A DNA stretch of 64,000 bases from a virus. The notes beneath the pieces were generated by a model, which was not told the origin of the DNA, ran no database searches, and saw nothing but the letters and a program-made list of their open reading frames with translations. A program made the translations under genes and the position numbers. The DNA is taken from the UHGV virus genome UHGV-0037395. One strand, written 5' to 3'. Position 1 is the stretch's first letter. Each line of letters begins with the position of its first letter. Below are positions 5,851-33,942 of the stretch, one piece after another.

Positions 5851-6093
5851 TTACGATTCCTTGAGCAAAGAAGCAAGTTCAGCATAGACTTTATCTAACT
5901 CAAAGCCGATGCGAAGAGACACGTTTGTTTTCCGTTGTTTAAGTAACCATTTGGATATATTAGGGATGCCAGCTAATCTATGTGGTACCACCCTACATAG
6001 CTTTTCCGAAGTGTCATAAACAGGAACTTTACGTTCTTTTACTGGGAACTTCCTTGTTTCCCATTTTTTATTCTTCACTGTCATTTCTAGCAC
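5851..6093 (-). CDS. Hypothetical protein (80 aa)
   Basis: ORF overlapping stop of the large ATPase gene. Confidence 0.3.
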   Translation of the reverse strand: MLEMTVKNKKWETRKFPVKERKVPVYDTSEKLCRVVPHRLAGIPNISKWLLKQRKTNVSLRIGFELDKVYAELASLLKES

Positions 6094-8857
6094 CTAGCTC
6101 TGCCATTGCTTCATCATGCATATGTTTCTCCTCATCAGTCATAAACTTATATGGGATTGGCATACACTCGATTTTACAATAAGTTCTGTACCAGTCTACA
6201 ATATTCTCCGTGTTCATATCTTTACCAATACCCATCATACCAAGATACATTCTGGCATATTTTGGGTTAGCACTCTGACCTGTTTTAAGGAAGAAATCTT
6301 TCTTCTTACCTTTCAGAGCTTCTATGAATGGTTTGATAGTGACATTTGAACACTTCTTAATATCTTCCCAGAACATCTCGTGCATTTTATGGAAGAATGC
6401 AGCCCGATCATTAGGTTTATCCTTGATATATTGTTCAACATGCTCAACTGTTACATCTTTAATAGACTCAAGATGGTAATAGCGAACAAGAAGTAGTTTA
6501 GCTTCATACGCATCTGCATGTCGTGGAGCACAATAATCAGGAGTTGAATACAAAATGGCTTTGATTCGCTCTTCTATATACTCTTTTCCTGCACCTTCGA
6601 TAGTTCCCCAGCTTTCACTGAAAATATCAATAGTTGCACCCTGATCAAGCAAGTAATAACGTAAAGTACTAGTATAGTTCCTAGACTCCAGCTCCCTACG
6701 ACGTGCGTATAATTGCTGTGCTAATTCCAGCCAACCTTCATCAATGTTATATTGTTCAGAGCCTGCGGAGAATCCACTCGTAGATTTATCAATAAAATAA
6801 TAAATGTTCTGAGCACCACGGTCGCGCCTGATTGCTTGAAAACGCATGTTTGGCGCTTGGTTACTAGTTCTAGTAATAACGAATACGTTATCAAAATAGT
6901 TGAAGTCAACACCACTTGTTACGGATGGACTACATAATAAGCAATCAATTTGTTGGTCAATTAGCTCATTAGTTGTGTAATCCAGAATACGTCTAATATC
7001 CACATCAGACGTAGAGTTTGAGTGGATTTCCTTAACTAACGCACCCGTATTACGACGTAATGCCATGCCCTTCTCATTCAGCTCATCAGGGCCACAATCA
7101 GATACCAGAATAGATTTCTCACCCATCTCTAGAGAAGTCTGAAGTGCAACCCAAATACTGGATTCATCAGGGAACTCATAAGCATGAGCTTTTGACAACA
7201 TCTTACGGTGATGGTTATAAAATGCAACCGGTTTATCAAACTCAATCAAAGAACCATATGCTTCAATTGTTTCTGCACTAATATCACCATCGGATAATAT
7301 AATGATTTTTGCAGTTGCAAGAATATCCCGAAGAACCTGAATACATTCACGACGTTGTTTAACAACCGGGGCGAATAATAGGTCGTTCATTACTGCATCA
7401 CATTCATCGATAAAGATTGCATCAATTTGACCAATAAAACTCTTGAACTTATGCAAAGAGTGAATAGTTGTGGACATACGATCAATAGCACCACGCTTAA
7501 AATTAAGCATATCTACAGACTTATCGTATTGTCCTGCACTAAATTTCTTAGCATTTGAAGATACCAGTGCTCTAGTATTGGTAATTGCTAAAAAATTACC
7601 TTTAATAACTCCTGAATCTAACCAACGCACAACCGCCGTGGTTTTACCTGTACCTAGACTTGCTTTTACAAAAGTCATATAACCTTCTGGTGGCACAGTA
7701 TTTAATTTCAAGAAGTTATCAGTTTCTAGGGAGTTAGTTTCTAGCTTTTTAAGTGGAATACCTTTTAAAACATCAGGTATATCGCGTTTAGAATTATTAA
7801 CAAACGCTTTCAGAGCCTGTTTACGACCGTTATTAAAATAATCTTGAATATTACGACTATTATCTTTAGTTGCAATATATTCTGATAAGGCTGGACGGAT
7901 TTCTTTTTCTAGCCATGCAAAATCAACACCATCCTCTAATGCTCTATGGTATAGTTTGGGGATAATACGCAAGTACACCCCATCCTCAGCTTCTTCTAGT
8001 TCGCTGATAGTTTCCTCTACTTTATCAGAGGCAGCTTTTTTACCTTTAATTTGATCAAGTAAAGAGTAAAACTCCTCCTTAAACTCACCCCTAGTTGTTT
8101 CATAGTCAACTAGATTATTGGGTAAATTTACTTTAGAACCCTTAACAAATACCAGACGTGAAGCACCCTCCGCTTTAAATGGATCTACTATACCATCAGT
8201 AAATAACGGATCTGCAAAATAGTGGAGCTGTACGGAAGAGTAATAAGCTAAGTCGGCAATATCAAAGCCATACTTTTGTCTACTACTTTCATTGATAGAT
8301 GTAAATAAGAATTTGATTTGACCCTGAGTTACTCTAACATTAGATTCTAGTATTAAGTGCATTCGGATACCTGGTTTTAGCCCAGCCGAAGACGATGCAT
8401 GAGCGATAAACCCTGCATCAAGAGGAAACATATCCTCACTAATACTATTTAACATTCTAATAATATGTCGAGCCATGCCAACAAGATCAAACTTGTTACA
8501 ACCACCTGTATCTACAATACCATCCACGTCCATTGCAATTATATGACTTGGGTTAGATACATTAAAGTTGCCCTTCTTACGTCGCACATTATTTTTAGGT
8601 GCAAGACATCGACCTCGTACCGCAACGATATGAGGGTCAGACGTTAAACGTCTCATAAGAGGAAGCATTTCTACTAGGGTTTGAGGATCAACTTCATCAA
8701 TTACATCAAACTTGAAGGGCATTGAAGCTGGTTTACCTTCAGGATGCTTTGAGGAAAATCTTTTAGCAAAAAGATAGTCTTCTGCTTTAACTTCCCGCCA
8801 AATGCCTGTGGCTAAATCGCGATGAAATCCTGCATGACCTTGTAGGATTGAGAACAC
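6068..8857 (-). CDS. Large Walker A/B ATPase, putative replication origin-binding or helicase-like protein (~929 aa)
   Basis: Walker A SLGTGKTT and Walker B IFIDECDAV. Probable GTG start at 8857 with RBS AGGAG 7 nt upstream (ORF track starts at TTG 8935). Long leader upstream. Confidence 0.45.
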   Translation of the reverse strand: MFSILQGHAGFHRDLATGIWREVKAEDYLFAKRFSSKHPEGKPASMPFKFDVIDEVDPQTLVEMLPLMRRLTSDPHIVAVRGRCLAPKNNVRRKKGNFNVSNPSHIIAMDVDGIVDTGGCNKFDLVGMARHIIRMLNSISEDMFPLDAGFIAHASSSAGLKPGIRMHLILESNVRVTQGQIKFLFTSINESSRQKYGFDIADLAYYSSVQLHYFADPLFTDGIVDPFKAEGASRLVFVKGSKVNLPNNLVDYETTRGEFKEEFYSLLDQIKGKKAASDKVEETISELEEAEDGVYLRIIPKLYHRALEDGVDFAWLEKEIRPALSEYIATKDNSRNIQDYFNNGRKQALKAFVNNSKRDIPDVLKGIPLKKLETNSLETDNFLKLNTVPPEGYMTFVKASLGTGKTTAVVRWLDSGVIKGNFLAITNTRALVSSNAKKFSAGQYDKSVDMLNFKRGAIDRMSTTIHSLHKFKSFIGQIDAIFIDECDAVMNDLLFAPVVKQRRECIQVLRDILATAKIIILSDGDISAETIEAYGSLIEFDKPVAFYNHHRKMLSKAHAYEFPDESSIWVALQTSLEMGEKSILVSDCGPDELNEKGMALRRNTGALVKEIHSNSTSDVDIRRILDYTTNELIDQQIDCLLCSPSVTSGVDFNYFDNVFVITRTSNQAPNMRFQAIRRDRGAQNIYYFIDKSTSGFSAGSEQYNIDEGWLELAQQLYARRRELESRNYTSTLRYYLLDQGATIDIFSESWGTIEGAGKEYIEERIKAILYSTPDYCAPRHADAYEAKLLLVRYYHLESIKDVTVEHVEQYIKDKPNDRAAFFHKMHEMFWEDIKKCSNVTIKPFIEALKGKKKDFFLKTGQSANPKYARMYLGMMGIGKDMNTENIVDWYRTYCKIECMPIPYKFMTDEEKHMHDEAMAELGARNDSEE

Positions 8858-9354
8858 AACAATACTCCTGTATTGGAAATGAAATAAGTTTTCTTTAGGA
8901 CTATTCAGAAAGAATAGAACAACTGTTACTGTCAATTTCTCAACAAATTAATTGCAAATACTGAAGGGGGGTGGCAACTTCCCCTTTCACGCTACACTGC
9001 CGCTTCACTATACCGCACAAATCCTTGAGGATGGCCGCTAAGCCAGATTTGCTCACCTAATGCTTCATGTACTAGCTCATACTAGATGTAGTATACCTTA
9101 CGTCATCACTTCTCAGAGTTTTTCACTCTTCCCGTCTCACTTCACAACCACCTCACACTAGGTTGCTTCGAGGCCTTACCAGGGTTCCTACGGGATGTAG
9201 ATCGCTAAGTATTCTATTAACTATTTGTTTAAAAACTAACACGTAACAGTTAAAACAACCCTTAATGGGGCAGCCTAACTGTTCCGTATCGCGGATTGTA
9301 AACAAGAAAAATTAGCAAAATCAATTTTTACTAATGTCTCTCATTTATGGGAAT

Positions 9355-9384
9355 ATTATACTATAAAATAATACTCCCTTGCAA
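9355..9384 (-). promoter_or_regulatory. T5-type promoter (TTGCAA-18-TATAAT) heading a ~480-nt leader
   Basis: Cassette-like flanks; no ORF between it and the ATPase gene start at 8857. Confidence 0.5.
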
Positions 9385-9392
9385 ATGAAATT

Positions 9393-9899
9393 TTACTGGA
9401 TTGATTCCCTACCGTATAATTGACCTCTAAACATCTTGGCCATAGAACATGCAACCTCATAGTTGTCATATGTTCCTTTAACTATCCGTTTACGGTTAAT
9501 AGTAAATACTACTTGCCAGTTCTTACTACCAGAAGGGTAAACATGCATTCCTTTCTTATATTTGATATTTCTTAGATTACCAGATACTGTCTGCTCTCTA
9601 AGATTTTCAATACGATCATCACCTTTTATAGTGTTCACATGATCTACTAAATCAGGTAAGTATCCATGATGCATTAAAAATATTGCTCTATGCCGAAGCA
9701 TAGTCCTATTCCCTAGAGATATACGATAATATCCGTTACCCGTAGAAACACAACATTCTTTCCCTGCATTTCTTCCCGTAGTTCTAAATAACTTACCATC
9801 TTCATATCGGAAGTTATCTAAAAGTTCTTGCTGTGTGAATGACATCCTCACCTCCAATACATATATTATTACATAATCCATCCAAATTGTCAACGACAA
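9393..9899 (-). CDS. HNH homing endonuclease
   Basis: YYRISLGNRTMLRHRAIFLMHHGYLPDLVDHVN...RIENLREQT matches HNH/NUMOD-type free-standing endonucleases. Confidence 0.65.
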   Translation of the reverse strand: MSLTIWMDYVIIYVLEVRMSFTQQELLDNFRYEDGKLFRTTGRNAGKECCVSTGNGYYRISLGNRTMLRHRAIFLMHHGYLPDLVDHVNTIKGDDRIENLREQTVSGNLRNIKYKKGMHVYPSGSKNWQVVFTINRKRIVKGTYDNYEVACSMAKMFRGQLYGRESIQ

Positions 9900-9987
9900 T
9901 TTATTTTGACTATCAATCGACTGGAAAGATTAGGTAATAATCCGAGCACTAATAGCCCGGATTATAAAGTTCATCTAATAAAAATCA

Positions 9988-10377
9988 TTAGTCATTTAAT
10001 CCCGGAACATAGATCCCAACACGGTTTAATTGTTCTTTAGCTTCTTTGAGAATATCTGGAGTGTACTCCCAAATATCATCTTCCACCTGTAAAAGATGGG
10101 GCGAACAACCATCATCAGGCGCACGACATATGGCCAAGCCACGTGGATGGAATATAGAGAAGTTTAGGGCAACAATTAAACCCATAGCGGACAATTCATT
10201 CCAGTCCATCTCCCATTCCCCGGCGTAGCCGGATAGAAAAACACCAATACAGGGATCATCTGTTTGCTGCTCAGGAAAAGTGAAGGAGGCTTGTCTTACC
10301 CCTAACCAACGTTGTAGCAGCTTTTCCGCACGCTTCACCAAACTAGGGTCAATCTGACGCCAATATACTTGTTCCAT
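9988..10377 (-). CDS. Hypothetical protein, paralog A of tandem pair (129 aa)
   Basis: Shares PCIG..W.E.D.MGL..ALN...F.P...and C-terminal (Y/M)(V/I)PGL with the adjacent ORF. Confidence 0.45.
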   Translation of the reverse strand: MEQVYWRQIDPSLVKRAEKLLQRWLGVRQASFTFPEQQTDDPCIGVFLSGYAGEWEMDWNELSAMGLIVALNFSIFHPRGLAICRAPDDGCSPHLLQVEDDIWEYTPDILKEAKEQLNRVGIYVPGLND

Positions 10378-13092: not shown

Positions 13093-14967
13093 TTATTTAG
13101 CTCGAATATCCTGATGTTTCACCCTGCCCATAACCTCATGCTGTTTGCCTGGGTTAAATGGACGAGCACCAGGATTTCCAAGATACCCACAAACTCGACG
13201 AGTTACTTCAAGAGTTTCGGGGTCATGATTACCACAGATAGGGCACTTAAATCCATCTTCGGATGCTATTGTTTCACCTAAGAATCCACATTTACCACAA
13301 GAATCCACTGGAGTATTAATACCGAAGTAATGAACCTTACTAGCAGCATAATTAATAACCCATTCCAGTGCATCTGGGAATCGTTTCATATCCGGTAATT
13401 CTACATAGGAAATGCACCCACCAGAAGCAATAGGAGTAAAGTTAGACTCATAATCAAATTTCACATTGGGAGCAACTTTACGTTCCACATCAAGGTGGTG
13501 AGAGTTAGTGTAGTATCCTTTGGACAGAATATCTTCATGCTCCGGGAAATATTCACGGTCTAGACGACAAAAACGGTCACATAGGGATTCTGATGGTGTA
13601 GCATACAGGCTATAACCTAACTTAGTTTCTTCCTTCTTCTGATCGACTCTATCCCGCATGTACTGCAATACACGCTGAACAAACTTGATGCAGGTCTCGG
13701 ACATCGTGTCTACATCTTTGCCAAACATGAACTGTAGCATTTCATGGCAACCAATATACCCTAGAGATACAGAAGCACGGTTATAGAAATGATCGAATAC
13801 ATATTCATCAGGCTCCAAGCGCAGTCCAAAGGCTCCTGACATATAGAGGATGGGCGCAGCTTTAGCTTGAATGTATTTTAAGCGATCAACTCTCCACTCC
13901 AATGCTTTTAACGCTGTATCCACACGTAGCTCAAGTAAATCAAAGAATAGGTCAATATTTCCTTCAGCTTCGATAGCAATTCTAGGCAAGTTTACAGAAA
14001 CAACACCTAAGTTATTACGACCGGCAGTTTCACCATCTTCTGTAGCAGCTAGGAATGAACGACAGCCCATAGAAACTTTATAGTCTCCAGTAACTTCCAC
14101 AACCTTATCATAGCTGATATAATCTGGGTACATACGTTCAGCAGTACATTTCATAGCTAACTTCTTGATGTCATAATTAACATCCCCTGGTTTCATATTT
14201 ACGCCATCACGAAGTACAAATACCAGTTTCGGGAAGATAGCTGTACGTTTATTGATACCTAAACCATCCATGCGTACTTTCAATATTGCTTTCTGTACTA
14301 GACGTGCTTCCCAAGAAGTTCCTAGACCAAAACCAAAGGTAATAAATGGACTCTGACCATTAGAGTTGAACATGGTATTGATTTCATATTCTAAACCCTG
14401 ACAAGCGTCATAGACTTCTTTTTCAGTCATCTCCGTAGCCATTACTGATGCTTTGGCTTCATCCTTAGTCCAACGTTTTGCAAACGCATGATTTTTGTCA
14501 TAGGATTTACGAACATAAGGAGCTAATACTTCATCAAGGCGATCCACGGAAGTGCCACCATACTGATGGGAGCTAACTTGAGTGATAATCTGAGCAGTAA
14601 TAGCCGCTGCAGTAGTGATAGAGTTTGGAGTGCTAATTTCAGCATTACCAACCTTCATACCATTCTTCAACATATCTTCCAGAGCTACCAGACAACAGTT
14701 AGTCATGCCTAATGCAGCATAATCAGCATCATGGAAATGAATATCCCCAATCATATGAGCATTTCGAATCTGAATTGGCATTTCTTCTAGAATCAGATAC
14801 TTACTCAATTCACCTGCAAGCATATCCCTCTGTGTAGGGAAACGTTCTGAGGGTTTATTGGCATTATTAAACAGCAGCTCTTCATCTGCTGACCCTTCGA
14901 TAATCTCTTTGCAGTTTCTAATTAACGCCTGCATTTCTTTATACTTTAGTTCTTCATTGCGATTCAT
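13093..14967 (-). CDS. nrdD: Anaerobic ribonucleoside-triphosphate reductase (class III)
   Basis: 624 aa; C-terminal glycyl-radical motif RVCGYLG; Zn site CGKCGF...CPICG. Sigma70-consensus promoter upstream. Confidence 0.85.
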   Translation of the reverse strand: MNRNEELKYKEMQALIRNCKEIIEGSADEELLFNNANKPSERFPTQRDMLAGELSKYLILEEMPIQIRNAHMIGDIHFHDADYAALGMTNCCLVALEDMLKNGMKVGNAEISTPNSITTAAAITAQIITQVSSHQYGGTSVDRLDEVLAPYVRKSYDKNHAFAKRWTKDEAKASVMATEMTEKEVYDACQGLEYEINTMFNSNGQSPFITFGFGLGTSWEARLVQKAILKVRMDGLGINKRTAIFPKLVFVLRDGVNMKPGDVNYDIKKLAMKCTAERMYPDYISYDKVVEVTGDYKVSMGCRSFLAATEDGETAGRNNLGVVSVNLPRIAIEAEGNIDLFFDLLELRVDTALKALEWRVDRLKYIQAKAAPILYMSGAFGLRLEPDEYVFDHFYNRASVSLGYIGCHEMLQFMFGKDVDTMSETCIKFVQRVLQYMRDRVDQKKEETKLGYSLYATPSESLCDRFCRLDREYFPEHEDILSKGYYTNSHHLDVERKVAPNVKFDYESNFTPIASGGCISYVELPDMKRFPDALEWVINYAASKVHYFGINTPVDSCGKCGFLGETIASEDGFKCPICGNHDPETLEVTRRVCGYLGNPGARPFNPGKQHEVMGRVKHQDIRAK

Positions 14968-14996
14968 TATACTCTCCTTCTCTAACTAAGACTACT

Positions 14997-15023
14997 ATTA
15001 TAACTCATTCGAGGGCGGATGTC
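14997..15023 (-). promoter_or_regulatory. Sigma70 consensus promoter (TTGACA-17-TATAAT) for nrdD
   Basis: Perfect -35/-10 hexamers on minus strand; lacks the T5 cassette flanks. Confidence 0.6.
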
Positions 15024-15160
15024 AATATAATTTTTCTCTTAGATATCGTATTTTGATCTGTGCTAAGAAAATTGATCAGAATGTCAAAATTTTATTGACA
15101 CCACCATAACTTTTGTATAAGATATACACATAACTTAAGAAATTTGACAAGGAAATAAAA

Positions 15161-15652
15161 ATGAACACTGAAATAACCCAAGACCTACTAAGGACCTACT
15201 TTGACTATAAAGATGGAGAATTGTTTTATAAACCAACTTATAAAACCCCTGCGGGAAGAATATCCAAAAAAGCAGGTAAATCCGCCAGGCTAACTCCGTG
15301 TAATGGGTACTATCGTATAAATGTACCAAGAATAGGTGTACAGAAAGAACATAGGATGATTTTCCTATATCATGAAGGATACCTACCAGAAGTAGTAGAT
15401 CATATTGATAGGGATAAAGAAAACAATAGGATAGAGAACCTTAGGGCATCTAATCTTCAGGACAACGCTATTAATCGCTCCATAAGTAAAAGTAACACCT
15501 CTGGCATTGTGGGTGTCCATTATGATGAATCGTATGGTAAGTGGGTTGTAACGTACAGGGGTAAGTACTTTGGAAGATTTGATACCAAAGAAGAAGCTGC
15601 CGAAGTTAATGCTAATGTTCGTGCCCTTGATCAAACCCGTATAAATAGTTGA
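15161..15652 (+). CDS. HNH homing endonuclease
   Basis: GYYRINVPRIGVQKEHRMIFLYHEGYLPEVVDHIDRDKENNRIENLR; similar to the 9393 and 49367 endonucleases. Confidence 0.6.
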   Translation: MNTEITQDLLRTYFDYKDGELFYKPTYKTPAGRISKKAGKSARLTPCNGYYRINVPRIGVQKEHRMIFLYHEGYLPEVVDHIDRDKENNRIENLRASNLQDNAINRSISKSNTSGIVGVHYDESYGKWVVTYRGKYFGRFDTKEEAAEVNANVRALDQTRINS

Positions 15653-15735
15653 TTATCTAGTATCACACATCTCCCGTTAAAAGCAAGCAAATTTTTTATT
15701 TAAATGCAATATCATAGGCTTATTTAAAATTGTAG

Positions 15736-15764
15736 TTGCTTTTTACTGTATATATTGGTATAAT
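15736..15764 (+). promoter_or_regulatory. T5-type early promoter for phoH (TTGCTT-17-TATAAT)
   Basis: Cassette match. Confidence 0.55.
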
Positions 15765-15837
15765 ATATTTGTAAGTTGATAAACAAGATCTTTTTGTTGA
15801 TCCTCTGTTAGCGAAGTACACTATAGGAGTGTTATTT

Positions 15838-16590
15838 ATGGGAAAAGCACGTCAAAAAAGAGAGAACCGCAATGGTTCAAGAAAGCGTGGCAACAAATAT
15901 GAGAATAACGTAATTCAGGCTGATTTTTCTAATGATTACGCTAACCCAGTTGCTAAATCCCTAGTAGGTAAAAACCGCGAGCAAAAATCATATATCAATA
16001 TGATCAAGAACAACACAGTGACTGTGGGTATCGGTGAGCCAGGTACTGGTAAAACCTTTATTCCGTCCGTTCTTGCAGCTCAGGAACTCGTAGACATTCA
16101 CTCAGATATTGAGCAAGTGATCCTCGTACGTCCTAATGAACCTCTAGGTAAGTCTCTTGGTATGCTTCCTGGTGATCTAGCGGAAAAGCTAGAGCCTTGG
16201 TTGGAGCCAATAGCTGATGGTATGAAATGGGCCATCGGCGATCATGCATATAAAGGATATGTCGAACGTCAGAAAATTAAATTTTTGGCTGTCGAACATG
16301 CTCGTGGCAGAACTTTCAACAACTCCTATGTAATTGTCGATGAAGCTCAGAATATTTCCGTTGAGGCAATGATTTGTATCCTAACTCGTGTAGGACAAGA
16401 CTGCCGCTTAATTATCTGCGGAGATATAGCTCAGAAAGACATTAAAGGTGACTCAGGTCTAGCACTCCTTATGGAAGTATATGAGAAATACGAAAATGCC
16501 CCATTCTCAATGATTGAATTGATTGATAACGTTCGTTCTGTTGAGTCTAAAGCATTCTATGATATTTTCAAAGACATGGGGAAGGTGTAA
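15838..16590 (+). CDS. phoH: PhoH-like ATPase
   Basis: Walker A GEPGTGKT and Walker B VIVDEAQN. ATG at 15838 with RBS TAGGAG (ORF track starts at upstream GTG). Confidence 0.85.
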   Translation: MGKARQKRENRNGSRKRGNKYENNVIQADFSNDYANPVAKSLVGKNREQKSYINMIKNNTVTVGIGEPGTGKTFIPSVLAAQELVDIHSDIEQVILVRPNEPLGKSLGMLPGDLAEKLEPWLEPIADGMKWAIGDHAYKGYVERQKIKFLAVEHARGRTFNNSYVIVDEAQNISVEAMICILTRVGQDCRLIICGDIAQKDIKGDSGLALLMEVYEKYENAPFSMIELIDNVRSVESKAFYDIFKDMGKV

Positions 16591-16592
16591 TA

Positions 16593-16813
16593 TGGGAAAC
16601 GTCGTTCATCTGAGCCGTAAAACTAAAATACATCGTACTTCACTGAGTGCTGCTAATATGATTACACGTAAGGAAGGGGAAGAAAGTCCTAGGACAACCC
16701 TAGCGTGGAAAATTGTAACCTCAAATCCAAATAAACCATTCAATTATAACGAGCTGAGCACCTCCATAGATATTCTATTAAAAGAAGTAGCTAGAGCTAA
16801 AGTAATTGAATAA
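16593..16813 (+). CDS. Hypothetical protein (73 aa)
   Basis: ATG 3 nt after phoH stop, preceded by GGAAGG. Confidence 0.35.
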
Positions 16814-16888
16814 GCTAAAAAGCTAGACTGGTAATATACAGGGCCTGGGTATGAAAATACTCGGGCCTTTTCTATCAGAAAATTTTAT

Positions 16889-16917
16889 TTGCCTAATGAC
16901 CAATAATAAAGTAGAAT
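16889..16917 (+). promoter_or_regulatory. Promoter for nrdA (TTGCCT-17-TAGAAT)
   Basis: Hexamers with 17-bp spacer after a weak hairpin. Confidence 0.4.
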
Positions 16918-16955
16918 ATTCCTTAAATCCTGATAACTATAAAAAGGAAAACCAA

Positions 16956-19286
16956 ATGAGCCATCGCATTGAAAAAGTAATTAAACGTGACGGTACTATA
17001 GAAGACTTTGCTCCTGAAAAAATCAATGGTTGGGCAGAGTATGGTTGCAAAACAGTTGATGTAAGTTGGTCCGCCATTACTATGGCTGCTCAAAAAACTC
17101 TACCTAAAGGGGTTGTAGATTCCGACACTCTGATGGACGCATTAATTAAAGCTGCTGAAAGTCTTATCAAAGATAACCCAGCATACGATGTGCCAGCAAA
17201 GGAATTACGTCTTGCGCAAATGCGTAAACGCCTTTATGACTCTTTCGAACCACCTTCTCTGCGCTTCTTCCATGATCATATGGTTAGCGTAGGTGCATGG
17301 GAAGACATGAGTGCATGGATTACCGATGAGCAATTTGAAGCTCTGAATCAGGTTATCGATCATGATCGTGACCGTCTTTTTACTAGTGGTGGACTGAAGC
17401 AGTTCTTTGATAAGTATTCCCGTCGTAATATAGCCACTGGTGAAATTTATGAAACCCCGCAATTCGCCTACATGGGTATGGCAATGGCGATGCTATCTCA
17501 ACCTAACTGGACAATTCTAGATGCAATCGACCTCTACAACGCAATGTCGCTCCACAAAATCAACGTTCCTACGCCGCCATTGGTTGGTCTGCGCTCTAGT
17601 GACCGTGGATTTGCTAGTTGCTGCCTCGTGGATTCCACTGACACGTTGGATTCAATCGACACCGCCGAGCACATCGTCTTCAAAATGGTCGCAGCCAGAG
17701 CGGGAATCGGGTATCATCTTGAAAGCCGATCAATTGCTGATCCGGTGCGAAATGGGGCATTCCCGCATTCCGGAAAACTGCCATATTATCGACACATTGA
17801 CCGCTCAGTAAAGGCTAATACTCAGCAAACTCGTGGTGGTTCTGCTACAGTGTCTTATCCATACTTCGACCCTGAAATCATTCAATTGATGCAGGTTAAG
17901 CAACAACGTGCTACAGATGAGAATAAAATCGATAAGATGGATTATTCTCTGAGCTTTAACAATCTTTTGTTAAAACGTTATCTTAAAAACGAAGATATTA
18001 CGCTAATGTCATACTTCTATGCTCCAGAAGTTCATGAAGCGTTTTATAGTGATGACGAGGCTAAATTTGAAGAAATCTACGTGGCAGCGGAGAAACGTGT
18101 GGCATCTCTTACAAAGATCGACCACGAAGGAAAAACAGTTCCAGCAGCTCCTAAAGTCTCTGCAAAAGAAATCCTAGATACTTGGCTACGTATCCGAATG
18201 GAAACAGGACGTATGTATGCTCATCACATCGGGGAATCTAATCGTCACGGTAACTTCCTTGATCCGATCCGTATGACAAACCTTTGTGTTGAAATTACTC
18301 AGCCTACCCGCCCGTTCCATCACATTACAGAGCTGTACAAGACAAAAGAGCAGCTTGATCAGATGAAGCCGGAGGATATTGGTGAAGTATCCCTGTGTAA
18401 CTTAGGTGGTGTTGTACTTGGACGCATGGAATCTCTGGCTGAGTGGGAAAAAACTTGCTACATCCTTCTGAAGTTTGTTGATACAATTATTGAAATTCAG
18501 GATTATCCGTTCCCAACTATGGAATATACGGCCAAGAAACGTCGTAATGTTGGTATTGGCCTGATGAACGCAGCGGGTGCAATGGCAGCAGAAGGTCTGG
18601 CTTACGAAGGTATTGAAGCGCGTAACTGGATCCACCGTGAGGCTGAAAAACTGTCTTACTTCCTGCATAAAGCCTCTGTACGCCTGGCTAAAGAACAGGG
18701 TGCATGTGAGTGGTTTGATCGTACTAAACCATCTAAAGGAATTCTGGTAATCGATACGTACAAGAAAACTGTTGATGAACTGGTATCCGTAGGTCTAGAA
18801 ATGGATTGGGAGTCTCTACGTGCAGATATTCTGAAATATGGTATGCGTAACTCTGTTCTGACGGCTCAGATGCCGGGAGAAAGTTCTTCTGTTCTGTTAG
18901 GTGTTACTAACTCTATTGAACCGCCTCGTAAGATTGTATCTATCAAGGGTAGTGCAGTAAATAAAGTAATTGCAATTGCTCCAGGTGCAATCGATTGGGA
19001 AACGTTGATGAGCTATAAGCTGGCTTATGATGTAGATCGTATCGAGTGGATCAAATGGGTAGCAACTATGCAGAAATTCTTCAGTCAGTCTATCAGTACG
19101 AATATGTACTATGACTACACCAAGTTTGAGAATGAAATTATTCCTGGCCCAGTAGTAGTTCGTGATTTCATGACTGCTGTTAAGTATGGGTGGAAAACTT
19201 GGTATTATGCTAACTTCAATACCGCAAATGGTGGAGGTGCTGGAGAAGAAGCAGCCGGTTGTGCATCAGGCGGTTGTACTATTTAA
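16956..19286 (+). CDS. nrdA: Ribonucleotide reductase large subunit (class Ia)
   Basis: 776 aa with ATP-cone N-terminus and C-terminal CASGGCTI redox tail. ATG at 16956 after RBS AAGGAAA. Confidence 0.85.
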   Translation: MSHRIEKVIKRDGTIEDFAPEKINGWAEYGCKTVDVSWSAITMAAQKTLPKGVVDSDTLMDALIKAAESLIKDNPAYDVPAKELRLAQMRKRLYDSFEPPSLRFFHDHMVSVGAWEDMSAWITDEQFEALNQVIDHDRDRLFTSGGLKQFFDKYSRRNIATGEIYETPQFAYMGMAMAMLSQPNWTILDAIDLYNAMSLHKINVPTPPLVGLRSSDRGFASCCLVDSTDTLDSIDTAEHIVFKMVAARAGIGYHLESRSIADPVRNGAFPHSGKLPYYRHIDRSVKANTQQTRGGSATVSYPYFDPEIIQLMQVKQQRATDENKIDKMDYSLSFNNLLLKRYLKNEDITLMSYFYAPEVHEAFYSDDEAKFEEIYVAAEKRVASLTKIDHEGKTVPAAPKVSAKEILDTWLRIRMETGRMYAHHIGESNRHGNFLDPIRMTNLCVEITQPTRPFHHITELYKTKEQLDQMKPEDIGEVSLCNLGGVVLGRMESLAEWEKTCYILLKFVDTIIEIQDYPFPTMEYTAKKRRNVGIGLMNAAGAMAAEGLAYEGIEARNWIHREAEKLSYFLHKASVRLAKEQGACEWFDRTKPSKGILVIDTYKKTVDELVSVGLEMDWESLRADILKYGMRNSVLTAQMPGESSSVLLGVTNSIEPPRKIVSIKGSAVNKVIAIAPGAIDWETLMSYKLAYDVDRIEWIKWVATMQKFFSQSISTNMYYDYTKFENEIIPGPVVVRDFMTAVKYGWKTWYYANFNTANGGGAGEEAAGCASGGCTI

Positions 19287-28305: not shown

Positions 28306-29102
28306 ATATTCATAAATTAGGGAACAGCGAGCCGATTACGCTGAGTGCAGAATCCCAACCGGAGCGCATTGAATAGAGTCGGTGGGTTAGTTGTAAAACT
28401 AGTACACAGGGGGCGGCAATCCCGGTTAGTGGCTAGAACGTGTAAAATGAGGCGTCTGAAACCTCTCCCCTAAATTCTTCTCTAATTTATAAATAGTGGG
28501 GTGTGGAAATCACTTATGTAGTAACACTGCCGTCCTAGTATAATTGGTATTATCAAGCCGTAACTGGTGGAAGATGTAGGTTCGAATCCTACGGTCGGTA
28601 AGAACTGGATAACTGATGCTTTTAACGTAAAAGCTTCCGAGGTTAGTTGCGCACTGCCTAAACCACGCGGTAGTTGGTTCCAGACTAACCAACCAGTCTG
28701 CTGAATAGTTTTATTACGATTTAACTATGTCCAGGCTAAAGAAGAACTTTAGAAGGTATTCTAGGATAGTGAAGTTCTTTCTCCATATCGGAGTAGTTTT
28801 TCAAGCTATCCACAAAGTGGGAAATGCTGACATGAGAGATGTCACTAATGGTGCACAATAGCACAGGTAATTCGCGATAATTCCTGTTGAGTAGCAGCAA
28901 AAGGCGGGAAGTCATGACCCCAAGCCTAACCGAGTCCTCAATATACCGCAGGACATAACCACTAAGTCACCCTGACTTAAACTGGAAAATAATAGACGTT
29001 ACTGTATTTTGTCTTGAAATACTTAATGAGTGAGACTTATGACTCTCCCGGTATCGTCTGTATTTTTAAGAGTTTTTACGAGAGTTCTTAAAAATACTTA
29101 AA
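28306..29102 (+). ncRNA. ~800-nt non-coding transcribed region with tRNA-like fragments (includes T-arm GTAGG-TTCGAAT-CCTAC at 28576-28592)
   Basis: Strong promoter at 28277-28305. No ORF over 15 codons. Hairpins at 28683-28700 (CAGACT...AGTCTG) and elsewhere. Ends at tRNA-Arg. Confidence 0.3.
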
Positions 29103-29177
29103 CGGGGTGTAGTCTAAGGGAGAGGCAGGAGTCTTCTAAATTCCTTTATGCAGGTTCGAATCCTGTCACCTCGGCCA
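29103..29177 (+). tRNA. tRNA-Arg(TCT): tRNA-Arg (anticodon TCT)
   Basis: Acceptor CGGGGTG/CACCTCG, T arm GCAGG-TTCGAAT-CCTGT, anticodon loop CTTCTAA, encoded CCA. Confidence 0.6.
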
Positions 29178-29211
29178 ATTTTATTAACTGTAACTAAAAC
29201 AAAGGAAATAT

Positions 29212-30159
29212 ATGTTTAATACTAAAAATATGAAAGAACTGACTTCTGAGCAGAAAGTAATTCGTACTATTAAACGTTGGGGGATTGGTGCTGTAGTTGG
29301 TTTAGCAGGTTTAATCCTAGCTTTTAATTCATATACTATTGTTTCTGATGGTACGGTTAAAACTCAAACATTCCTGGGTAAAGTAGACCCTAATCCAGTA
29401 TTGCCCGGTTTCCATCTTGTAAACCCATTTGCATCTTTCGATACTTTTAGTACAAAAGATATTGCTGTAAAATTAGATAAACTTCAGGTTCCTAGTCAGG
29501 ATAAGTTTAAATCCACTGTTGACCTGACCGTTATGTTGCAGTTTGATGGTTCTAAGGCACCAATTAACCGTATTAATGCAGGTACTCAGGATCAAGCGTT
29601 AGACAAATATGTAACTGAAAAATTACTGTCTACTATTCGTGAGTTTGGTAAGTCTGTACCTAAAGCACAAGATTTGTTTGATGCTAAAATTCAGGCTCAA
29701 TTGCAAACTGCAATTCAACAGGAAGTTGAAGAGTATGCACGCCCATATGGTTACACAGTTAAGCAGGTGTTCCTTCAGGATATTACTTTGCCACCAGTAA
29801 TCATGGAACAGGTACAGAATACCAAAGTTCGTGAAGAGCAAGTTAACGCTGCAAAAGCTGAATTAGCTCGTGTTGAACAGGAAGCACAGCAAAAAGTTAA
29901 ACAAGCAGAAGCAGATCGTGAAGCTCGCAACAACCAAGCTATTGCTAACGAACGTGACGCAGATGCTAAGCTGTATGCAGCTAAGAAAGAAGCTGAAGCT
30001 AACGCCGCACTGCAACGTACCATTACTCCTGAGATGATTCGCTGGAAGCAACTGGAAGTTGAAATGATTCGTGCTCAGAAGTATCAAGGTGGTGTACCGC
30101 AGACTGTGGTTGGCACTGGCTATGATGGCCAAATGATTATGGATATGCGTAACAAGTAA
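29212..30159 (+). CDS. SPFH/band-7 (prohibitin/HflC-like) membrane protein
   Basis: N-terminal TM helix, SPFH core, Ala/Glu-rich coiled coil; terminator downstream. Confidence 0.65.
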   Translation: MFNTKNMKELTSEQKVIRTIKRWGIGAVVGLAGLILAFNSYTIVSDGTVKTQTFLGKVDPNPVLPGFHLVNPFASFDTFSTKDIAVKLDKLQVPSQDKFKSTVDLTVMLQFDGSKAPINRINAGTQDQALDKYVTEKLLSTIREFGKSVPKAQDLFDAKIQAQLQTAIQQEVEEYARPYGYTVKQVFLQDITLPPVIMEQVQNTKVREEQVNAAKAELARVEQEAQQKVKQAEADREARNNQAIANERDADAKLYAAKKEAEANAALQRTITPEMIRWKQLEVEMIRAQKYQGGVPQTVVGTGYDGQMIMDMRNK

Positions 30160-30182
30160 TAGTTACACGTAATCTTCGAACC

Positions 30183-30222
30183 AAGCCCGCGTTTTCTCCG
30201 AGAGCGCGGGCTTTTCTGTATT
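30183..30222 (+). terminator. Rho-independent terminator after SPFH gene
   Basis: AAGCCCGCG...CGCGGGCTT plus TTCTGTATTT. Confidence 0.6.
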
Positions 30223-30230
30223 TAAGGAAA

Positions 30231-30272
30231 AAGAAAAAGCCCCTGCCGAAAGGTAAGGGGCTTTTGTTTTTG
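30231..30272. terminator. Bidirectional terminator between convergent units
   Basis: A-run, GCCCCT-...-AGGGGC hairpin, T-run. Confidence 0.6.
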
Positions 30273-30478
30273 GTTTAGAACCATATACTCTTGTTACAGC
30301 AACCACCCATACGGGAGGCCAATCTTGACTGAAAATCTACTCTAGGGGGCAGGATAAGAGTAGGCTTAAAGGCAAACGGATTGAACGCCGGTATTTGCGT
30401 AAACATTGCTGGAGAGCAACAACGTGCTACAGGCATTGGGCAGCACGAAACAGATTTTCTGCAACACATAATTCCTCC

Positions 30479-30895
30479 TTAGGAGTTATTACCACTATTT
30501 TGAGCTTTTGCAATTTGGCTTTGGCAGAAGCTATTAAACTTACCCATAAGTGATACGAGCTGTTTCCCATCCTCTGTCTTTGCGAAGTCTTCGAAAAGGG
30601 CTAGTACTGCCTGTCCTTCCGCAGAAACCTGCGGTTGTTGGGTTTGTTGCTGAACTTGCTGCTGCGGCATCTGTTGCTGCATTTGTTGAGGCATTTGCGA
30701 CTGCCCGCTTATTTGCTGCATCATTTGCATAGGACTCACACTTCCAGGGTTTTGCTGGAGTTGTTGCTGCATCTGTTGCGCTTCTGCTAAACGCTGTTGC
30801 AACTGTTGTAAGTAGGGGTTATCCAGACCCGGAATGGGCTGCTGGGAGCCCATACTTTGATTAAGTCCGTTATTTACAAAACCATATTTACTCAT
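30479..30895 (-). CDS. Gln-rich hypothetical protein (138 aa)
   Basis: Minus-strand ORF with RBS AAGGGGAGGAG, second gene of a convergent two-gene unit. Confidence 0.45.
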   Translation of the reverse strand: MSKYGFVNNGLNQSMGSQQPIPGLDNPYLQQLQQRLAEAQQMQQQLQQNPGSVSPMQMMQQISGQSQMPQQMQQQMPQQQVQQQTQQPQVSAEGQAVLALFEDFAKTEDGKQLVSLMGKFNSFCQSQIAKAQNSGNNS

Positions 30896-30916
30896 AATGG
30901 GCTCCTCCCCTTAATA

Positions 30917-31910
30917 TTAAGCCGGCAGTTTAGCCTGCAGACCAGCCAGAGTCTGAGTGATAGCACCAAGACTTAAAGCGATTTGATTAATTACCTGACC
31001 GTTAGCACCGCTACCCGCAGCGATTGCTTCACGTAGGCGACATGCATCTAACTCATCCTGGATACGCGCAGTAGTTACACCAGCGATCGCAGTCTGAAGT
31101 TCACAGCAACATTCAGCGATCTGACGTTCCAGAGAGTTCTGGTTAGCACACATCTGAGCCTGAACAGCGGCAAACTGGTTATTAGTTTGTAAAGTCTGCT
31201 GGAAAGCGATCTGTGCAGAATCAAACTTATCTTGTGCACGAGCTATCTGGTTAGCTGCGAAAGATTGATCAATCTGGCGAGAAAGATCGAACTGACCCTG
31301 AATAACGTTGCGGGTTTCCTGGCAGATCTGATTAGACAGATTAGCACCTGTACCATAGATCGTAGTTAGTACAGACTGAGTATCACGACTCTGGTTTTGG
31401 GATGTCTGGCTAAAACCATTGTTAACTGCGCTTAAAACAGCTCCAGTACCCTGGTTAGCTTCTGTACGGGTAGTGTTGATAGCTGCTAGAATACTAGCGG
31501 TATCTTGGTTCTGAAGTACTGCATCAACTGCGGTACCTTCACCAACTACACCACGTCCACCGAATCCACCGAAACCACCGAATCCGCCTGTTAATAGAGC
31601 ACCGATTAGGATAGCTCCGAATAGCCCCATACCTTCACCACCGAAAGCACCTACGTTTGCTGGGTAACCACCTAGTAGGCCAGGGAAGCCATTAGTAAAT
31701 ACGTTTACTGGTTCTTGCATTTTATGTTTTCCATATTTATGACAATGTTCATCATCGTCATCTTCATCGTCTTCATCATCGTGTTCACGATGTTTTTCTT
31801 CGTAGGCTCTGACCTTCTCCCACTTTTTCTTATCTGATTCCTCGTGACGGTGCAGTTCTGCCGCAACGCTAGAGACGGTCTCAGGACTCTTAGCTACTTC
31901 TTCTGTCATT
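30917..31910 (-). CDS. Membrane protein with acidic/His-rich N-terminus, TM helix, GFGG repeats and Q/N/T-rich C-terminal half (~330 aa)
   Basis: Start ATG at 31910 after RBS AGGAGG (ORF track starts earlier); sigma70-like promoter (TTGACA-17-TAAAGT) upstream on the minus strand. Confidence 0.45.
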
Positions 31911-31989
31911 TTTTGACACCTCCTAGTATATAGAAAATATGTGTCTCTTTGATCACTCATCCATAACATATACTTTACACTACCCCAGC

Positions 31990-32018
31990 GAAAATGTCAA
32001 GTGGTCTTTAAAAATTGC
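31990..32018 (-). promoter_or_regulatory. Sigma70-like promoter (TTGACA-17-TAAAGT) for minus-strand operon 31910-30479
   Basis: Approximate coordinates; host-type hexamers without cassette flanks. Confidence 0.35.
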
Positions 32019-32116
32019 CCCCGGATTTTTAGTGGGGTCACAAATTTTGGTCCTCACCACTTATCTGCTACCCTTAAGCGCCCTATGATTTTCCTCTAAA
32101 AAGTTAAAAAATTTGA

Positions 32117-32145
32117 TTGCTTGAATGCTAAATTCTCTGTATAAT
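32117..32145 (+). promoter_or_regulatory. T5-type early promoter for Toprim gene
   Basis: TTGCTT-17-TATAAT plus CTATAAATTTGAGAGAGG. Confidence 0.55.
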
Positions 32146-32175
32146 ATATCTATAAATTTGAGAGAGGAACCAAAT

Positions 32176-32694
32176 ATGAATGTTGATGAGCTAACACAGC
32201 ACCTCTTATCTAGGGGATTTGATGTAGATAAATATCATTGCTGGTTAAGTCCAGAAGGGTGGCTAACAGTCCCGTTGTATGACTTCTCTGGGATGTTGAG
32301 AGGCTATCAGACTTATAATCCTTCTGCTCCAAAAGGGCATGGTAAGTGCCCCTTTGAAGCTAAATATTTTACCTATTCTACTACACAGTGTGTATGGGGA
32401 CTAGAAACTCTCAATGGAGATGAAAAAGTAGTATTGATTGCTGAATCTGTATTTAAGGCAGTTGCGTTACATAACGCTGGTTATCCAGCCCTGGCAATGC
32501 TGGGTTCTTCTCCAGGAAAAGCCTTATTAAAGCAACTGAAATTATTACCTTTTAAATTGGTAGCTGTCGGGGACAACGATCCTGCGGGTGAAAAATTTGC
32601 TAGAAAATTAAATGGATTTGTTTCTCCTGTAGATGTGGATGAGATGTCTACCGAAAACTTGAAAAATTTTCTTGCTATGAAGCTAAATTTCTAA
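32176..32694 (+). CDS. Toprim-domain (DnaG-primase-like) protein
   Basis: Toprim Glu (VVLIAESVF) and DxD (VGDNDPAGE) motifs; ATG 32176 after RBS GAGAGAGG. Confidence 0.55.
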   Translation: MNVDELTQHLLSRGFDVDKYHCWLSPEGWLTVPLYDFSGMLRGYQTYNPSAPKGHGKCPFEAKYFTYSTTQCVWGLETLNGDEKVVLIAESVFKAVALHNAGYPALAMLGSSPGKALLKQLKLLPFKLVAVGDNDPAGEKFARKLNGFVSPVDVDEMSTENLKNFLAMKLNF

Positions 32695-32700
32695 TATAAT
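32672..32700 (+). promoter_or_regulatory. T5-type early promoter overlapping 3' end of Toprim CDS, driving tRNA-Ser/Met
   Basis: TTGCTA-17-TATAAT. Confidence 0.5.
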
Positions 32701-32715
32701 ATATCTTATAAATTC

Positions 32716-32804
32716 GGAAGAATAGCATAACGGTATTGCAGCAGATTGCTAATCTGTCGGTTTGAAATATAGCCTTGTGGGTTCGATTCCCACTTCTTCC
32801 GCCA
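32716..32804 (+). tRNA. tRNA-Ser(GCT): tRNA-Ser (anticodon GCT), long variable arm
   Basis: Acceptor GGAAGAA/TTCTTCC, T arm GTGGG-TTCGATT-CCCAC, loop TTGCTAA, 89 nt. Confidence 0.65.
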
Positions 32805-32810
32805 GATTTT

Positions 32811-32888
32811 GGTTCTCAAGCTCATATGGTATGAGCACCCGGCTCATAACCGGAAGGTACGTAGGTTCGAATCCTCGGGGAGCCACCA
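32811..32888 (+). tRNA. tRNA-Met(CAT): tRNA-Met/Ile2 (anticodon CAT)
   Basis: Acceptor GGTTCTC/GGGAGCC via G-U pairs, D stem GCTC/GAGC, loop CTCATAA; T stem imperfect. Confidence 0.5.
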
Positions 32889-32908
32889 ACTTAATTAGGG
32901 GATTACAA

Positions 32909-33097
32909 GTGGATCTATATATAGTTTATGTTGTGTTTATCCAAGATAGAGAATACCCGGATGAATATAAAAAAGGATATAGATTAGCCAGAGCTACCTC
33001 TGAAGCCCAAGCTATGGATAAAGTGGCAGATTATATGATTACGGTAGAAAACGTACACTATATCGACTACCTTGAAGCCTCAAAAGTAATTGACTAA
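32909..33097 (+). CDS. Hypothetical small protein (62 aa, GTG start)
   Basis: ORF following tRNA at 32888; AGGGGA RBS 6 nt before GTG; start uncertain. Confidence 0.25.
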   Translation: MDLYIVYVVFIQDREYPDEYKKGYRLARATSEAQAMDKVADYMITVENVHYIDYLEASKVID

Positions 33098-33106
33098 GGA
33101 GACTAT

Positions 33107-33292
33107 ATGTCTAAGTTTCAAGAACTCAAGCAAGAGCTAGAAGAATGTGCCTGCCCTGGGTGTAGGGGGATCGGTGAAAGTTCTGATGCAGAAGCAGGAG
33201 ATACTTTTTGCAATATCTGGGTTTGCCCAAATTGCAAGGGTACAGGTATTAATCCTAGCTGTGCTATTTCTCTAGATATTGAAAGAGGATAA
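33107..33292 (+). CDS. DnaJ-type zinc-finger mini-protein (61 aa)
   Basis: Two CxxCxGxG repeats (CPGCRGIG, CPNCKGTG). Confidence 0.45.
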   Translation: MSKFQELKQELEECACPGCRGIGESSDAEAGDTFCNIWVCPNCKGTGINPSCAISLDIERG

Positions 33293-33297
33293 TACCT

Positions 33298-33387
33298 GTG
33301 AAACTAAAAGATTATTATATTGGTTGGTTTGTGGGACTAGTAGTAGGATTTTCACTAGGCTATAATATGTATCAACTAATAAACTGA
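33298..33387 (+). CDS. Possible 29-aa hydrophobic peptide (GTG start)
   Basis: Short ORF between gene stop and tRNA; single TM-like stretch. Confidence 0.2.
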   Translation: MKLKDYYIGWFVGLVVGFSLGYNMYQLIN

Positions 33388-33393
33388 TTACAT

Positions 33394-33470
33394 GGGGGTG
33401 TAATCGAATTGGCATAGGTACTGGACTTAAAATTCAGGTTTTGTGGGTTCGAATCCCACCACCCCTACCA
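33394..33470 (+). tRNA. tRNA-Leu(TAA)?: tRNA with anticodon TAA (Leu-type) but short variable arm
   Basis: Acceptor GGGGGTG/CACCCCT, T arm GTGGG-TTCGAAT-CCCAC, anticodon arm CTGGA-CTTAAAA-TTCAG, discriminator A, CCA. Confidence 0.5.
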
Positions 33471-33485
33471 ACTTAAGGAAATAAG

Positions 33486-33650
33486 ATGTATAGACATCCA
33501 CCTCCGCCAACACGTCGTTCTAGGGAAGTCATCCTTATGGAATTGACTAAAAACTTCAAGGCAACTCTTGAAGATAGAGATCTAGGCACGGATGAAGACA
33601 TTGATTTTATTTGTAGACTATTAAAGATGAAACTGGAGAAACAACATGGC
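33486..33650 (+). CDS. Hypothetical small protein (54 aa)
   Basis: ATG with RBS AAGGAAATAAG just after tRNA 33394-33470; overlaps next start. Confidence 0.3.
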
Positions 33651-33852: not shown

Positions 33853-33882
33853 CTCCTCCAAACAGAATTTTTAAAAATGTAC

Positions 33883-33912: not shown

Positions 33913-33942
33913 AGTTATATAAATTGATGAAGGAGTTAACGA

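Follow-up and report, generated by a model that had tools for sequence, protein, structure and literature searches.

Large "ornate" RNAs such as ROOL and GOLLD are associated with phages (PMC12286853). Here, we analyzed a non-coding leader of approximately 490 nucleotides (nt) that precedes the gene for the D2 helicase, or "replication origin binding protein" (obp), in a 64,000-nt stretch of the virus genome UHGV-0037395 (hereafter, the window). The window is from a T5-like phage (Tequintavirus), and its leader stretch shows 99% identity with Escherichia phage vB_EcoS_MM-1. T5 ranks among the classical model phages, and both phage therapy and research on defence systems make wide use of T5-like phages. 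Like ROOL, GOLLD, and OLE, the leader RNA has many covarying helices and conserved loops, and, like ROOL and GOLLD, which occur in prophages, it is phage-borne; with a length of more than 400 nt, a covarying multi-helix fold, and neither coding potential nor a conserved open reading frame (ORF), it is a large ornate non-coding RNA. Unlike ROOL, GOLLD, and OLE, it does not match their Rfam models and has a fixed place at the 5' end of the helicase transcript of lytic T5-family phages.

Three other groups of known systems share features with the leader. Like the ColE1 RNA II, T4 oriF/oriG, and T7 primary origin transcripts, it combines a strong promoter with a structured, G-rich non-coding transcript of approximately 0.5 kb beside replication functions; unlike in those systems, nothing seen at the T5 site points to a hybrid, an RNase H site, an antisense regulator, or an origin, and the GC-skew turn lies elsewhere. 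RNase III cuts long double-stranded RNA (dsRNA) stems in phage early transcripts and rRNA precursors. As at the RNase III sites of T7 early mRNA, the lambda N leader, and rRNA precursor stems, an imperfect stem of 31–35 pairs flanks a folded domain in an early phage transcript, but the known phage sites are single hairpins of approximately 60 nt, whereas the T5 stalk (P1) encloses a 330-nt core and its cleavage is a prediction. Finally, as in the herpesvirus oriS*/UL9 system, a hairpin with an invariant loop and covarying stems is located beside the gene of a UL9-like protein (D2 matches Pfam Herpes_ori_bp, PF02399). UL9, however, recognises a DNA hairpin in the origin, the sequences are unrelated, and the strand bias and G-U pairs of the T5 element point to RNA. 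D2 itself has been studied biochemically as a bipolar SF2 helicase and is a proposed replication initiator (PMC3632103).

Covariation, strand preference, and anatomy of the obp leader

The first approximately 110 nt and the last approximately 75 nt of the leader were near-identical in all T5-like phages, and the central 314 nt fell into two forms of equal length that were 33.5% identical in register: type A, seen in the window and some 15 further loci, and type B, seen in T5 and some 19 loci. Folds were predicted within each type using RNAalifold on MAFFT alignments of 14 type A and 18 type B sequences. The type A fold comprised 157 pairs with 99.7% of cells paired, 6 compensated pairs, and 27 cells changed on both sides, and the type B fold comprised 153 pairs with 99.8% of cells paired, 12 compensated pairs, and 32 such cells. 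Slid controls, in which partners were moved by 1–3 columns, gave 34–52% paired cells and 0–1 compensated pairs in both types, and none of 500 shuffles of each type reached the observed compensated cells or covariation score. The compensated pairs were spread over different helices, namely P1, P2, P3, P3b, P4, P5, P5a, P6, and P7 (Table 1). The independently predicted folds of types A and B had 50–53 of 99 central pairs in common within 2–3 nt, and single-sequence folds of the two types overlapped by 32 pairs, compared to 4.6 ± 6.3 in shuffles (maximum 31 in 200). These comparisons of sequences strongly support that the leader is a conserved, structured RNA backed by covariation and not a spacer.

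The fold was also followed across seven enteric lineages, in a table of helices aligned one by one, curated by eye, and checked by script. P1, P2, and both parts of P6 were present in all seven, in the same nesting order and at a similar distance from CUUAGCGG, with unrelated sequences. For P2, for example, the strands were GUG-au-CUGUGU/GCACAG-CAC in T5, AUUG-au-CUAGAA/UUCUAG-CAAU in the Klebsiella type, and GCUAACAG/CUGUUAGC in Proteus. In a contiguous-helix test anchored only on CUUAGCGG, P1 was longer than in shuffles in 5 of the 7 lineages (p from 0.05 to <0.001).

On the obp-sense strand, G-U accounted for 17–18% of pair cells, and most one-sided substitutions toggled between Watson-Crick and G-U pairs. 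When the same pairs were read on the antisense strand, only 82–85% were paired. The consensus fold energies were −130 and −125 kcal/mol for sense versus −100 and −91 kcal/mol for antisense, and the antisense covariation term was half as large. The G-U usage and the weaker antisense fold therefore fit an obp-sense transcript from the conserved promoter.

The conserved fold spans approximately 440 nt, from H0 to P8 (Table 1), and does not agree with the small RNA that a first-pass annotation, made from the letters of the window, had offered as one possibility. H0 was compensated in DU_PP_V, My1, and a Klebsiella-type phage; in phage Shivani, this hairpin is annotated as a "terminator". The P0 sequence was invariant in types A, B, and E, and its fold was predicted also for type B; in L035, GG/CC was replaced by AG/CU and GAU/AUU by GCAU/AUGC. 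P1 encloses a multi-branched core of approximately 330 nt (P2–P7), and in type B it consists of 19 + 16 pairs. P3b (CAACC/GGUUG) was compensated in DU_PP_V and My1 as read from the alignment by eye, and hairpins equivalent to P4 were found in lineages C and E. The automatic fold of type A mis-paired the P6 region, and P6 was placed by comparison. Its CUUAGCGG loop was invariant in all seven enteric lineages, and its stems covaried, with 4 compensated pairs in type B in addition to cross-lineage changes. P7 covaried as well (G:C to U:A in type A; two compensated pairs in type B); the type B, or T5-type, P7 is the A/U-rich GAUAUGA/UCAUAUU at the same position.

Some smaller points concern single helices. 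Further CTTAGCGG sites in the window are not in the form of the P6 hairpin. P4, with a GAAAA loop on a 5-base-pair (bp) stem closed by U:A, has the form of lambda boxB; the loop is not kept in other lineages, so this resemblance is probably superficial. A pseudoknot between the P7 loop GUUGCCACC and GGUGAGCAA (leader 298–306, where leader position i is window position 9355 − i; UGACC/GGUCA in the Klebsiella type) was seen by eye, overlaps P6 partly, and is not claimed.

Table 1. Features of the obp leader and its surroundings in the window, listed in the direction of the leader transcript.
Feature	Position	Strand	Description
HNH endonuclease gene, free-standing	9393–9899	−	168 aa; Pfam HNH_3; outside the RNA element
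Early promoter	9355–9384	−	−35 TTGCAA (9384–9379), N18, −10 TATAAT (9360–9355); 10/12 consensus matches
Leader RNA of the D2/obp transcript	8858–9348	−	~490 nt; whole non-coding leader, without conserved ORF
H0, 5' hairpin	9304–9342	−	GAGAGA-c-AUUAGUAAAA / UUUUGCUAAU-u-UUUCUU; 16 pairs, 100% paired
P0, irregular hairpin	9264–9290	−	GAUACGGAACAGUUAGGCUGCCCCAUU, most conserved sequence motif; GAU-ac-GG-aa-CAGU / GCUG-CC-cc-AUU
P1, long-range closing stem, 5' strand	9219–9252	−	31 pairs, 99.8% paired; inverted repeats I1, I5
P2, 5' strand	9195–9205	−	GCG-au-CUACAU; compensated pairs: two in type A, one in type B
P3 domain	9131–9194	−	P3 CCCGU/ACGGG around hairpins P3a and P3b; one compensated pair in P3
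P4, hairpin	9115–9129	−	AGAGU-GAAAA-ACUCU; A:U to G:C compensation in type A
P5, 5' strand, and P5a hairpin	9072–9103	−	One compensated pair (256:357); register uncertain; type B equivalent at the same place
P6	9018–9051	−	Outer CAAAUC/GAUUUG, inner GGCU/GGCC; loop within CUUAGCGG (9035–9042)
P5, 3' strand	9000–9017	−	Register uncertain
P2, 3' strand	8989–8997	−	GUGUAG-CGU
P7, hairpin	8964–8986	−	AAGGGG / CCCCUU; conserved loop AAGUUGCCACC
P1, 3' strand	8920–8953	−	Pairs with 9219–9252
P8, hairpin	8901–8917	−	CUAUUC-UUUCU-GAAUAG; compensated in DU_PP_V (CUUUCC/GGAAAG) and L035
Linker	8870–8900	−	~30 nt, variable sequence
Shine-Dalgarno sequence of D2/obp	8865–8869	−	AGGAG, directly after the variable linker
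D2 helicase / obp gene	6068–8857	−	GTG start; ~930 aa (929 codons); Pfam Herpes_ori_bp (PF02399); PMC3632103

Distribution and sequence types

In the phage collection, 446 phage records matched the leader. A comparison with relatives lacking the HNH gene had been recommended in the first-pass annotation; in five such phages (T5, SE18, SSP1, TrudiGerster, and, more distantly, the Pectobacterium phage DU_PP_V), the same promoter is followed by an ORF-free gap of approximately 500–600 nt before obp. Among the enterobacterial relatives of T5 that were examined, all had the leader, with a length of approximately 480–770 nt. Long ORF-free obp leaders of 477–770 nt (from the −10 box to the start codon) were also present in My1, a Klebsiella-type phage, Providencia PR1, and Proteus Stubb, and other genera carry further central forms. 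A metagenome scan with the P0 motif gave only the same phage types plus chance hits. Between types A and B, the exchange boundaries coincide with the base of P1, and the core therefore behaves as a swappable cassette; the leader type was not tied to obp identity.

Relatives from Aeromonas carry a covarying RNA at the same location. Their Shenzhenvirus phages have 1.3–1.6 kb without credible ORFs upstream of obp. Their RNA of approximately 880 nt (3 phages, with approximately 70% identity between two lineages) had 261 pairs, of which 48 were compensated, with 95.9% of cells paired. Slid controls gave 3–9 compensated pairs and approximately 40% paired cells, and none of 500 shuffles reached the observed values. 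This RNA folded better on the sense than on the antisense strand and contained two hairpins with covarying stems and a UUAGCGG loop, which is close to CUUAGCGG. Homology between the enteric and Aeromonas RNAs is suggested by their position, the shared UUAGCGG hairpin, and the general architecture, and not by a common model. In Vibrio Pogseptimavirus, a promoter-headed gap of 640–730 nt precedes obp.

The family, which ranges from approximately 440 nt in T5-like phages to approximately 880 nt or more in Aeromonas, is not contained in Rfam 15. A cmscan search of the window with 4227 families matched nothing relevant at the gathering threshold or at E ≤ 10, and in 10 related loci nothing relevant was matched at E ≤ 1, including RNase P RNA, tmRNA, 6S, ROOL, GOLLD, and OLE. 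ARAGORN detected no tRNA or tmRNA in the leader region. In E. coli genomes, no host counterpart of the leader was found, and no description of this RNA was found in the literature, of which our coverage was incomplete.

Two observations were made on length and repeats. Three T5-like genomes from IMG/VR (L010:1905-2503, L030:1907-2503, and L037:1904-2503; the same contigs as L042, L070, and L061), of which two have a type A core and one has a type B core, share an insertion of approximately 100 nt in the 3' strand of H0, flanked by a TTTTTCTT direct repeat. Neither the window nor any other locus compared has this insertion, which may represent a small mobile element or an additional RNA domain. 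The Vibrio obp leaders (L079:1024-1665, L109:325-1050, and L110:261-993) contain an internal direct repeat, GACTATCAC...TAGCCTCAATCCTCGGATTGTGTGAGTCAGTTAACTTCTGTCG, that is present twice, and each of the three genomes has a second site matching the leader query.

Proposed role and competing explanations

The leader (8858–9348, minus strand) belongs to an uncatalogued family of large structured RNAs that is located on the obp strand immediately before obp, directly behind a conserved early-type promoter, in the enterobacterial and Aeromonas members of the Demerecviridae that were compared; its fold is self-contained and maintained by selection. We propose that it works as an RNA module coupled to D2, and we consider the chances of this reading to be about even. 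The module would form the 5' portion of the early transcript that carries obp. In the predicted fold, P1 is an imperfect dsRNA of at least 20 bp formed by distant segments, which is the form of an RNase III stalk; we think that it most likely serves as a processing stalk of this kind, and cleavage would then release the core as a stable RNA of its own and fix where the obp mRNA begins. Because CUUAGCGG, GUUGCCA, and the internal loops of P0 were more conserved than their stems, these loops may be contact sites for a protein, with D2 as the obvious candidate, or for tertiary folding. The module would thereby tune or assist the production or action of D2 early in infection. A functional link to D2 is suggested by the strict synteny with obp despite changing upstream neighbours. 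Here, we only infer the RNase III role of P1, the protein partner, and the effect on D2. The phage is experimentally tractable, and the RNA offers a ready target both for genetics and for solving its structure; it may bear on the start of T5 replication and on the purpose of large ornate phage RNAs.

A module, rather than a translational leader, is suggested by the variable and unstructured linker, by a second promoter in Proteus phage Stubb, and by a stem followed by six U residues in Aeromonas. Stubb has two perfect (12/12) sigma-70 promoters, one before the RNA (L067:705-733) and the other 37 nt upstream of the obp start (L067:1435-1464), and this suggests, from sequence, that the RNA and obp are separately transcribed in that lineage. 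In Aeromonas phage TS3 (L080:1481-1530), UUUUUU follows a 9-bp stem (AUCCUAGCC/GGCUAGGAU) that contains an inner hairpin, approximately 85 nt before the obp start. The site, which separates the large RNA from obp, resembles an intrinsic terminator; the terminator scan missed it because of its long loop. In 5 of 7 lineages, the duplex predicted between the conserved 5' motif and the final 28 nt was no more stable than in shuffles, and in the other two the result was marginal (0.03 and 0.06), with My1 marginally above chance; a translational riboswitch sequestering the Shine-Dalgarno sequence or the start is not supported by these comparisons. Two further pairings of the 5' motif, with the 5' strand of P1 (inverted repeat I3) and with the bases separating the Shine-Dalgarno sequence from the start codon, were rejected as candidates; both were found in T5-like phages only, where nothing varies, and were not significant across lineages.

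Several points weigh against the proposed RNA module. The sequences within a type are close relatives, so that the compensated cells overstate the independent events, which are few, and many helices do not vary within a type and hence are uninformative for covariation. The table of helices across lineages was hand-curated. P2 alone exceeded the chance length in none of the seven lineages in the contiguous-helix test; its support is covariation and conserved geometry among the sequences. Single-sequence folding gave a z-score of −1.8 for the sense strand and a stronger −3.0 for the antisense strand. The Vibrio leaders were too alike for a covariation test, and the family tested consists of the enterobacterial and Aeromonas members. 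A role at the DNA level could also explain why the 5' and 3' flanks are conserved in sequence.

A replication function offers one competing explanation, in which the promoter and the structured RNA would be, or would activate, a T5 origin, through an RNA-DNA hybrid or primer or through recruitment of D2 in cis via CUUAGCGG. The RNA-obp arrangement is invariant across the family with differing upstream neighbours, D2 is a UL9-like proposed initiator, and the origins of T5 have not been mapped; electron microscopy has shown multiple internal ones (PMC3632103). In addition, the T5 locus is mid-genome (59.6 kb of 121.8 kb), and the G-rich core (G = 0.31) favours R-loops. The leader region, however, contains neither iterons nor direct repeats (no repeat families beyond chance-size pairs), and the turn of the cumulative GC skew lies at approximately 15–16 kb in the window and not at the leader; the repeated initiator sites and the skew turning point of a DNA replication origin are thus both missing from the site. 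A recombineering study also suggested that T5 replication is dominantly unidirectional from one genome end (PMC10055335). We regard an origin transcript as possible but unlikely. The same modest chance applies to a more specific form, in which the CUUAGCGG hairpin of an early-transcript scaffold (duplicated in Aeromonas) would recruit D2 in cis and the RNA, tethered or processed, would open or prime the adjacent DNA, defining a T5-family origin by RNA. If true, this would provide an origin for a classical model phage in which none has ever been mapped.

Equally doubtful is a trans-acting non-coding RNA unrelated to obp, which would be freed from the early transcript as a stable RNA and serve in host take-over, as a defence decoy, or as a self-assembling ornate RNA in the manner of ROOL or GOLLD, and whose adjacency to obp would be historical. 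Its fold is self-contained and closed by P1, with a variable linker before the ribosome-binding site, and a separate promoter (Proteus) or terminator (Aeromonas) appears to stand between the RNA and obp. The central domain is swapped as a cassette between close relatives, with identical flanks in types A and B and independently of obp identity, and large ornate RNAs borne by phages are already known (PMC12286853). These features have to be set against the strict synteny with obp across very divergent phages, the lack of any similarity in E. coli hinting at mimicry, and the lack of a terminator between the RNA and obp in T5-like phages.

If the element acted as DNA, through hairpins in obp-sense single-stranded DNA at an origin (compare oriS*/UL9) or through duplex binding sites, the RNA structure would be irrelevant. 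D2 is UL9-like, CUUAGCGG and the P0 motif are kept as sequence, and single-stranded DNA of the sense strand would give the same strand bias as RNA. Yet the 17–18% of G-U pairs, which would be G-T in DNA, and the many one-sided transitions to G-U are what RNA typically shows and would carry a cost in DNA. A multi-branched fold of approximately 330 nt with a 31-pair stem directly after a strong promoter resembles a transcript, and no repeated binding sites were found. A DNA-level element is accordingly improbable in our estimation.

Still less credit is given to an attenuator or terminator leader, in which a GC hairpin and a U tract would halt transcription before obp unless relieved. The first-pass annotation had considered a cis-regulatory leader or attenuator, with a GGGG/CCCC hairpin at the end of the leader followed by a weak U-rich tract. 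A functional, structured, and conserved RNA is strongly supported, and the GC hairpin exists at 8964–8986 and covaries, but it does not end the leader: it is the internal helix P7, followed by the 3' strand of P1, to which the "U-rich tract" belongs, and it is located approximately 95 nt upstream of the Shine-Dalgarno sequence. H0 bears a terminator label in Shivani, but a scan of 8700–10000 gave no terminator-like site, and the GC-richness of P7 is not kept in T5-type phages, where it is A/U-rich.

Small protein genes in the leader are very improbable. ORFs of 50 and 38 codons are present (9153–9305 and 8940–9056, minus strand), and both, which are inside the RNA, are annotated as "hypothetical proteins" in phage MM-1. 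They start with TTG and GTG, their lengths and ends differ among near-identical relatives, and no equivalents were found in other lineages; one T5-type leader lacks any sense ORF of at least 25 aa. Moreover, the substitutions follow base pairing and not codons. Between the promoter and the GTG at 8857, no conserved ORF was found, only short ORFs of ≤60 aa that shift or vanish among close relatives, in agreement with the ORF-free leader described originally. The MM-1 "hypothetical proteins" within the leader are probably annotation artefacts, judging from the sequences compared. The equivalent gaps of Vibrio 70E34-1b and Aeromonas AhP_Mru1 are also annotated with strings of tiny ORFs. In hundreds of deposited genomes, this stretch of approximately 0.5 kb is blank or given dubious "hypothetical proteins", an annotation corrected here.

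A degenerate group I intron or homing-endonuclease scar tied to the HNH gene abutting the leader, also conceived in the first-pass annotation, can practically be dismissed, because T5 and many other relatives lacking the HNH gene carry the element in the same position and with equal length, the HNH gene occurs beside both RNA types, the element lies between genes with no split host gene, and there was no Rfam match to an intron (RF00028) or HEARO, in line with the earlier failure to recognise a group I core. HEARO or IscB omega RNA was likewise rejected as a candidate; it had no Rfam match, and the neighbour is a 168-aa HNH_3 homing endonuclease that is dispensable for the presence of the RNA.

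Promoter, neighbouring genes, and composition

The genes around the leader are on the minus strand. The homologous start codon of obp is ATG in relatives, and the GTG at 8857 of the window was borne out as the obp start. Structure and family comparisons of the N-terminal domain of D2 gave no informative match. The early promoter proposed at 9355–9384 was recovered in our scan and is homologous to the annotated T5 early promoter T5P32 (P32) and to a promoter annotation of AKFV33. It was kept in all lineages compared, and we infer from its sequence a transcription start at approximately 9348. No promoter close to 8857 was found in the scan, and the region was conserved and folded, not unstructured, so that neither of the findings that might have undone the original idea of a functional leader was obtained. 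A second, weaker promoter-like site (9324–9295, minus strand; TTGATT-N18-TACAAT, 9/12 matches) is located within hairpin H0.

The HNH gene was indeed immediately upstream, as described earlier. Located between the T5.107 homologue (DUF7415) and the obp promoter, it is present in some genomes and absent from others (window versus L004–L007), and it adjoins leaders of both types A and B. It was absent in T5, SE18, SSP1, TrudiGerster, and DU_PP_V, all five of which keep the leader. Because relatives lacking the HNH gene keep the leader, the gene is, on this sequence comparison, a later and unrelated insertion upstream of the promoter, and the leader is an old, family-wide feature.

The description of the leader as GC- and C-rich did not hold. 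Its guanine and cytosine (GC) content was 0.381, compared to a window mean of 0.391, and only the inner core (8989–9205, 217 nt) was higher, at 0.484; 17% of 333-nt windows had at least the GC content of the core enclosed by P1. The leader RNA was G-rich (core G = 0.31), not C-rich, with the same GC skew in the neighbouring genes. The GC skew switched sign at approximately 14000–18000 in the window, with the minimum of the cumulative skew at approximately 15–16 kb. A cluster of 23–25 tRNA genes, typical of T5-like phages, was located at 28529–40695 (plus strand). Those tRNA genes that fall in the positive-skew part of the window are on the plus strand, and the genes of the obp region are on the minus strand.

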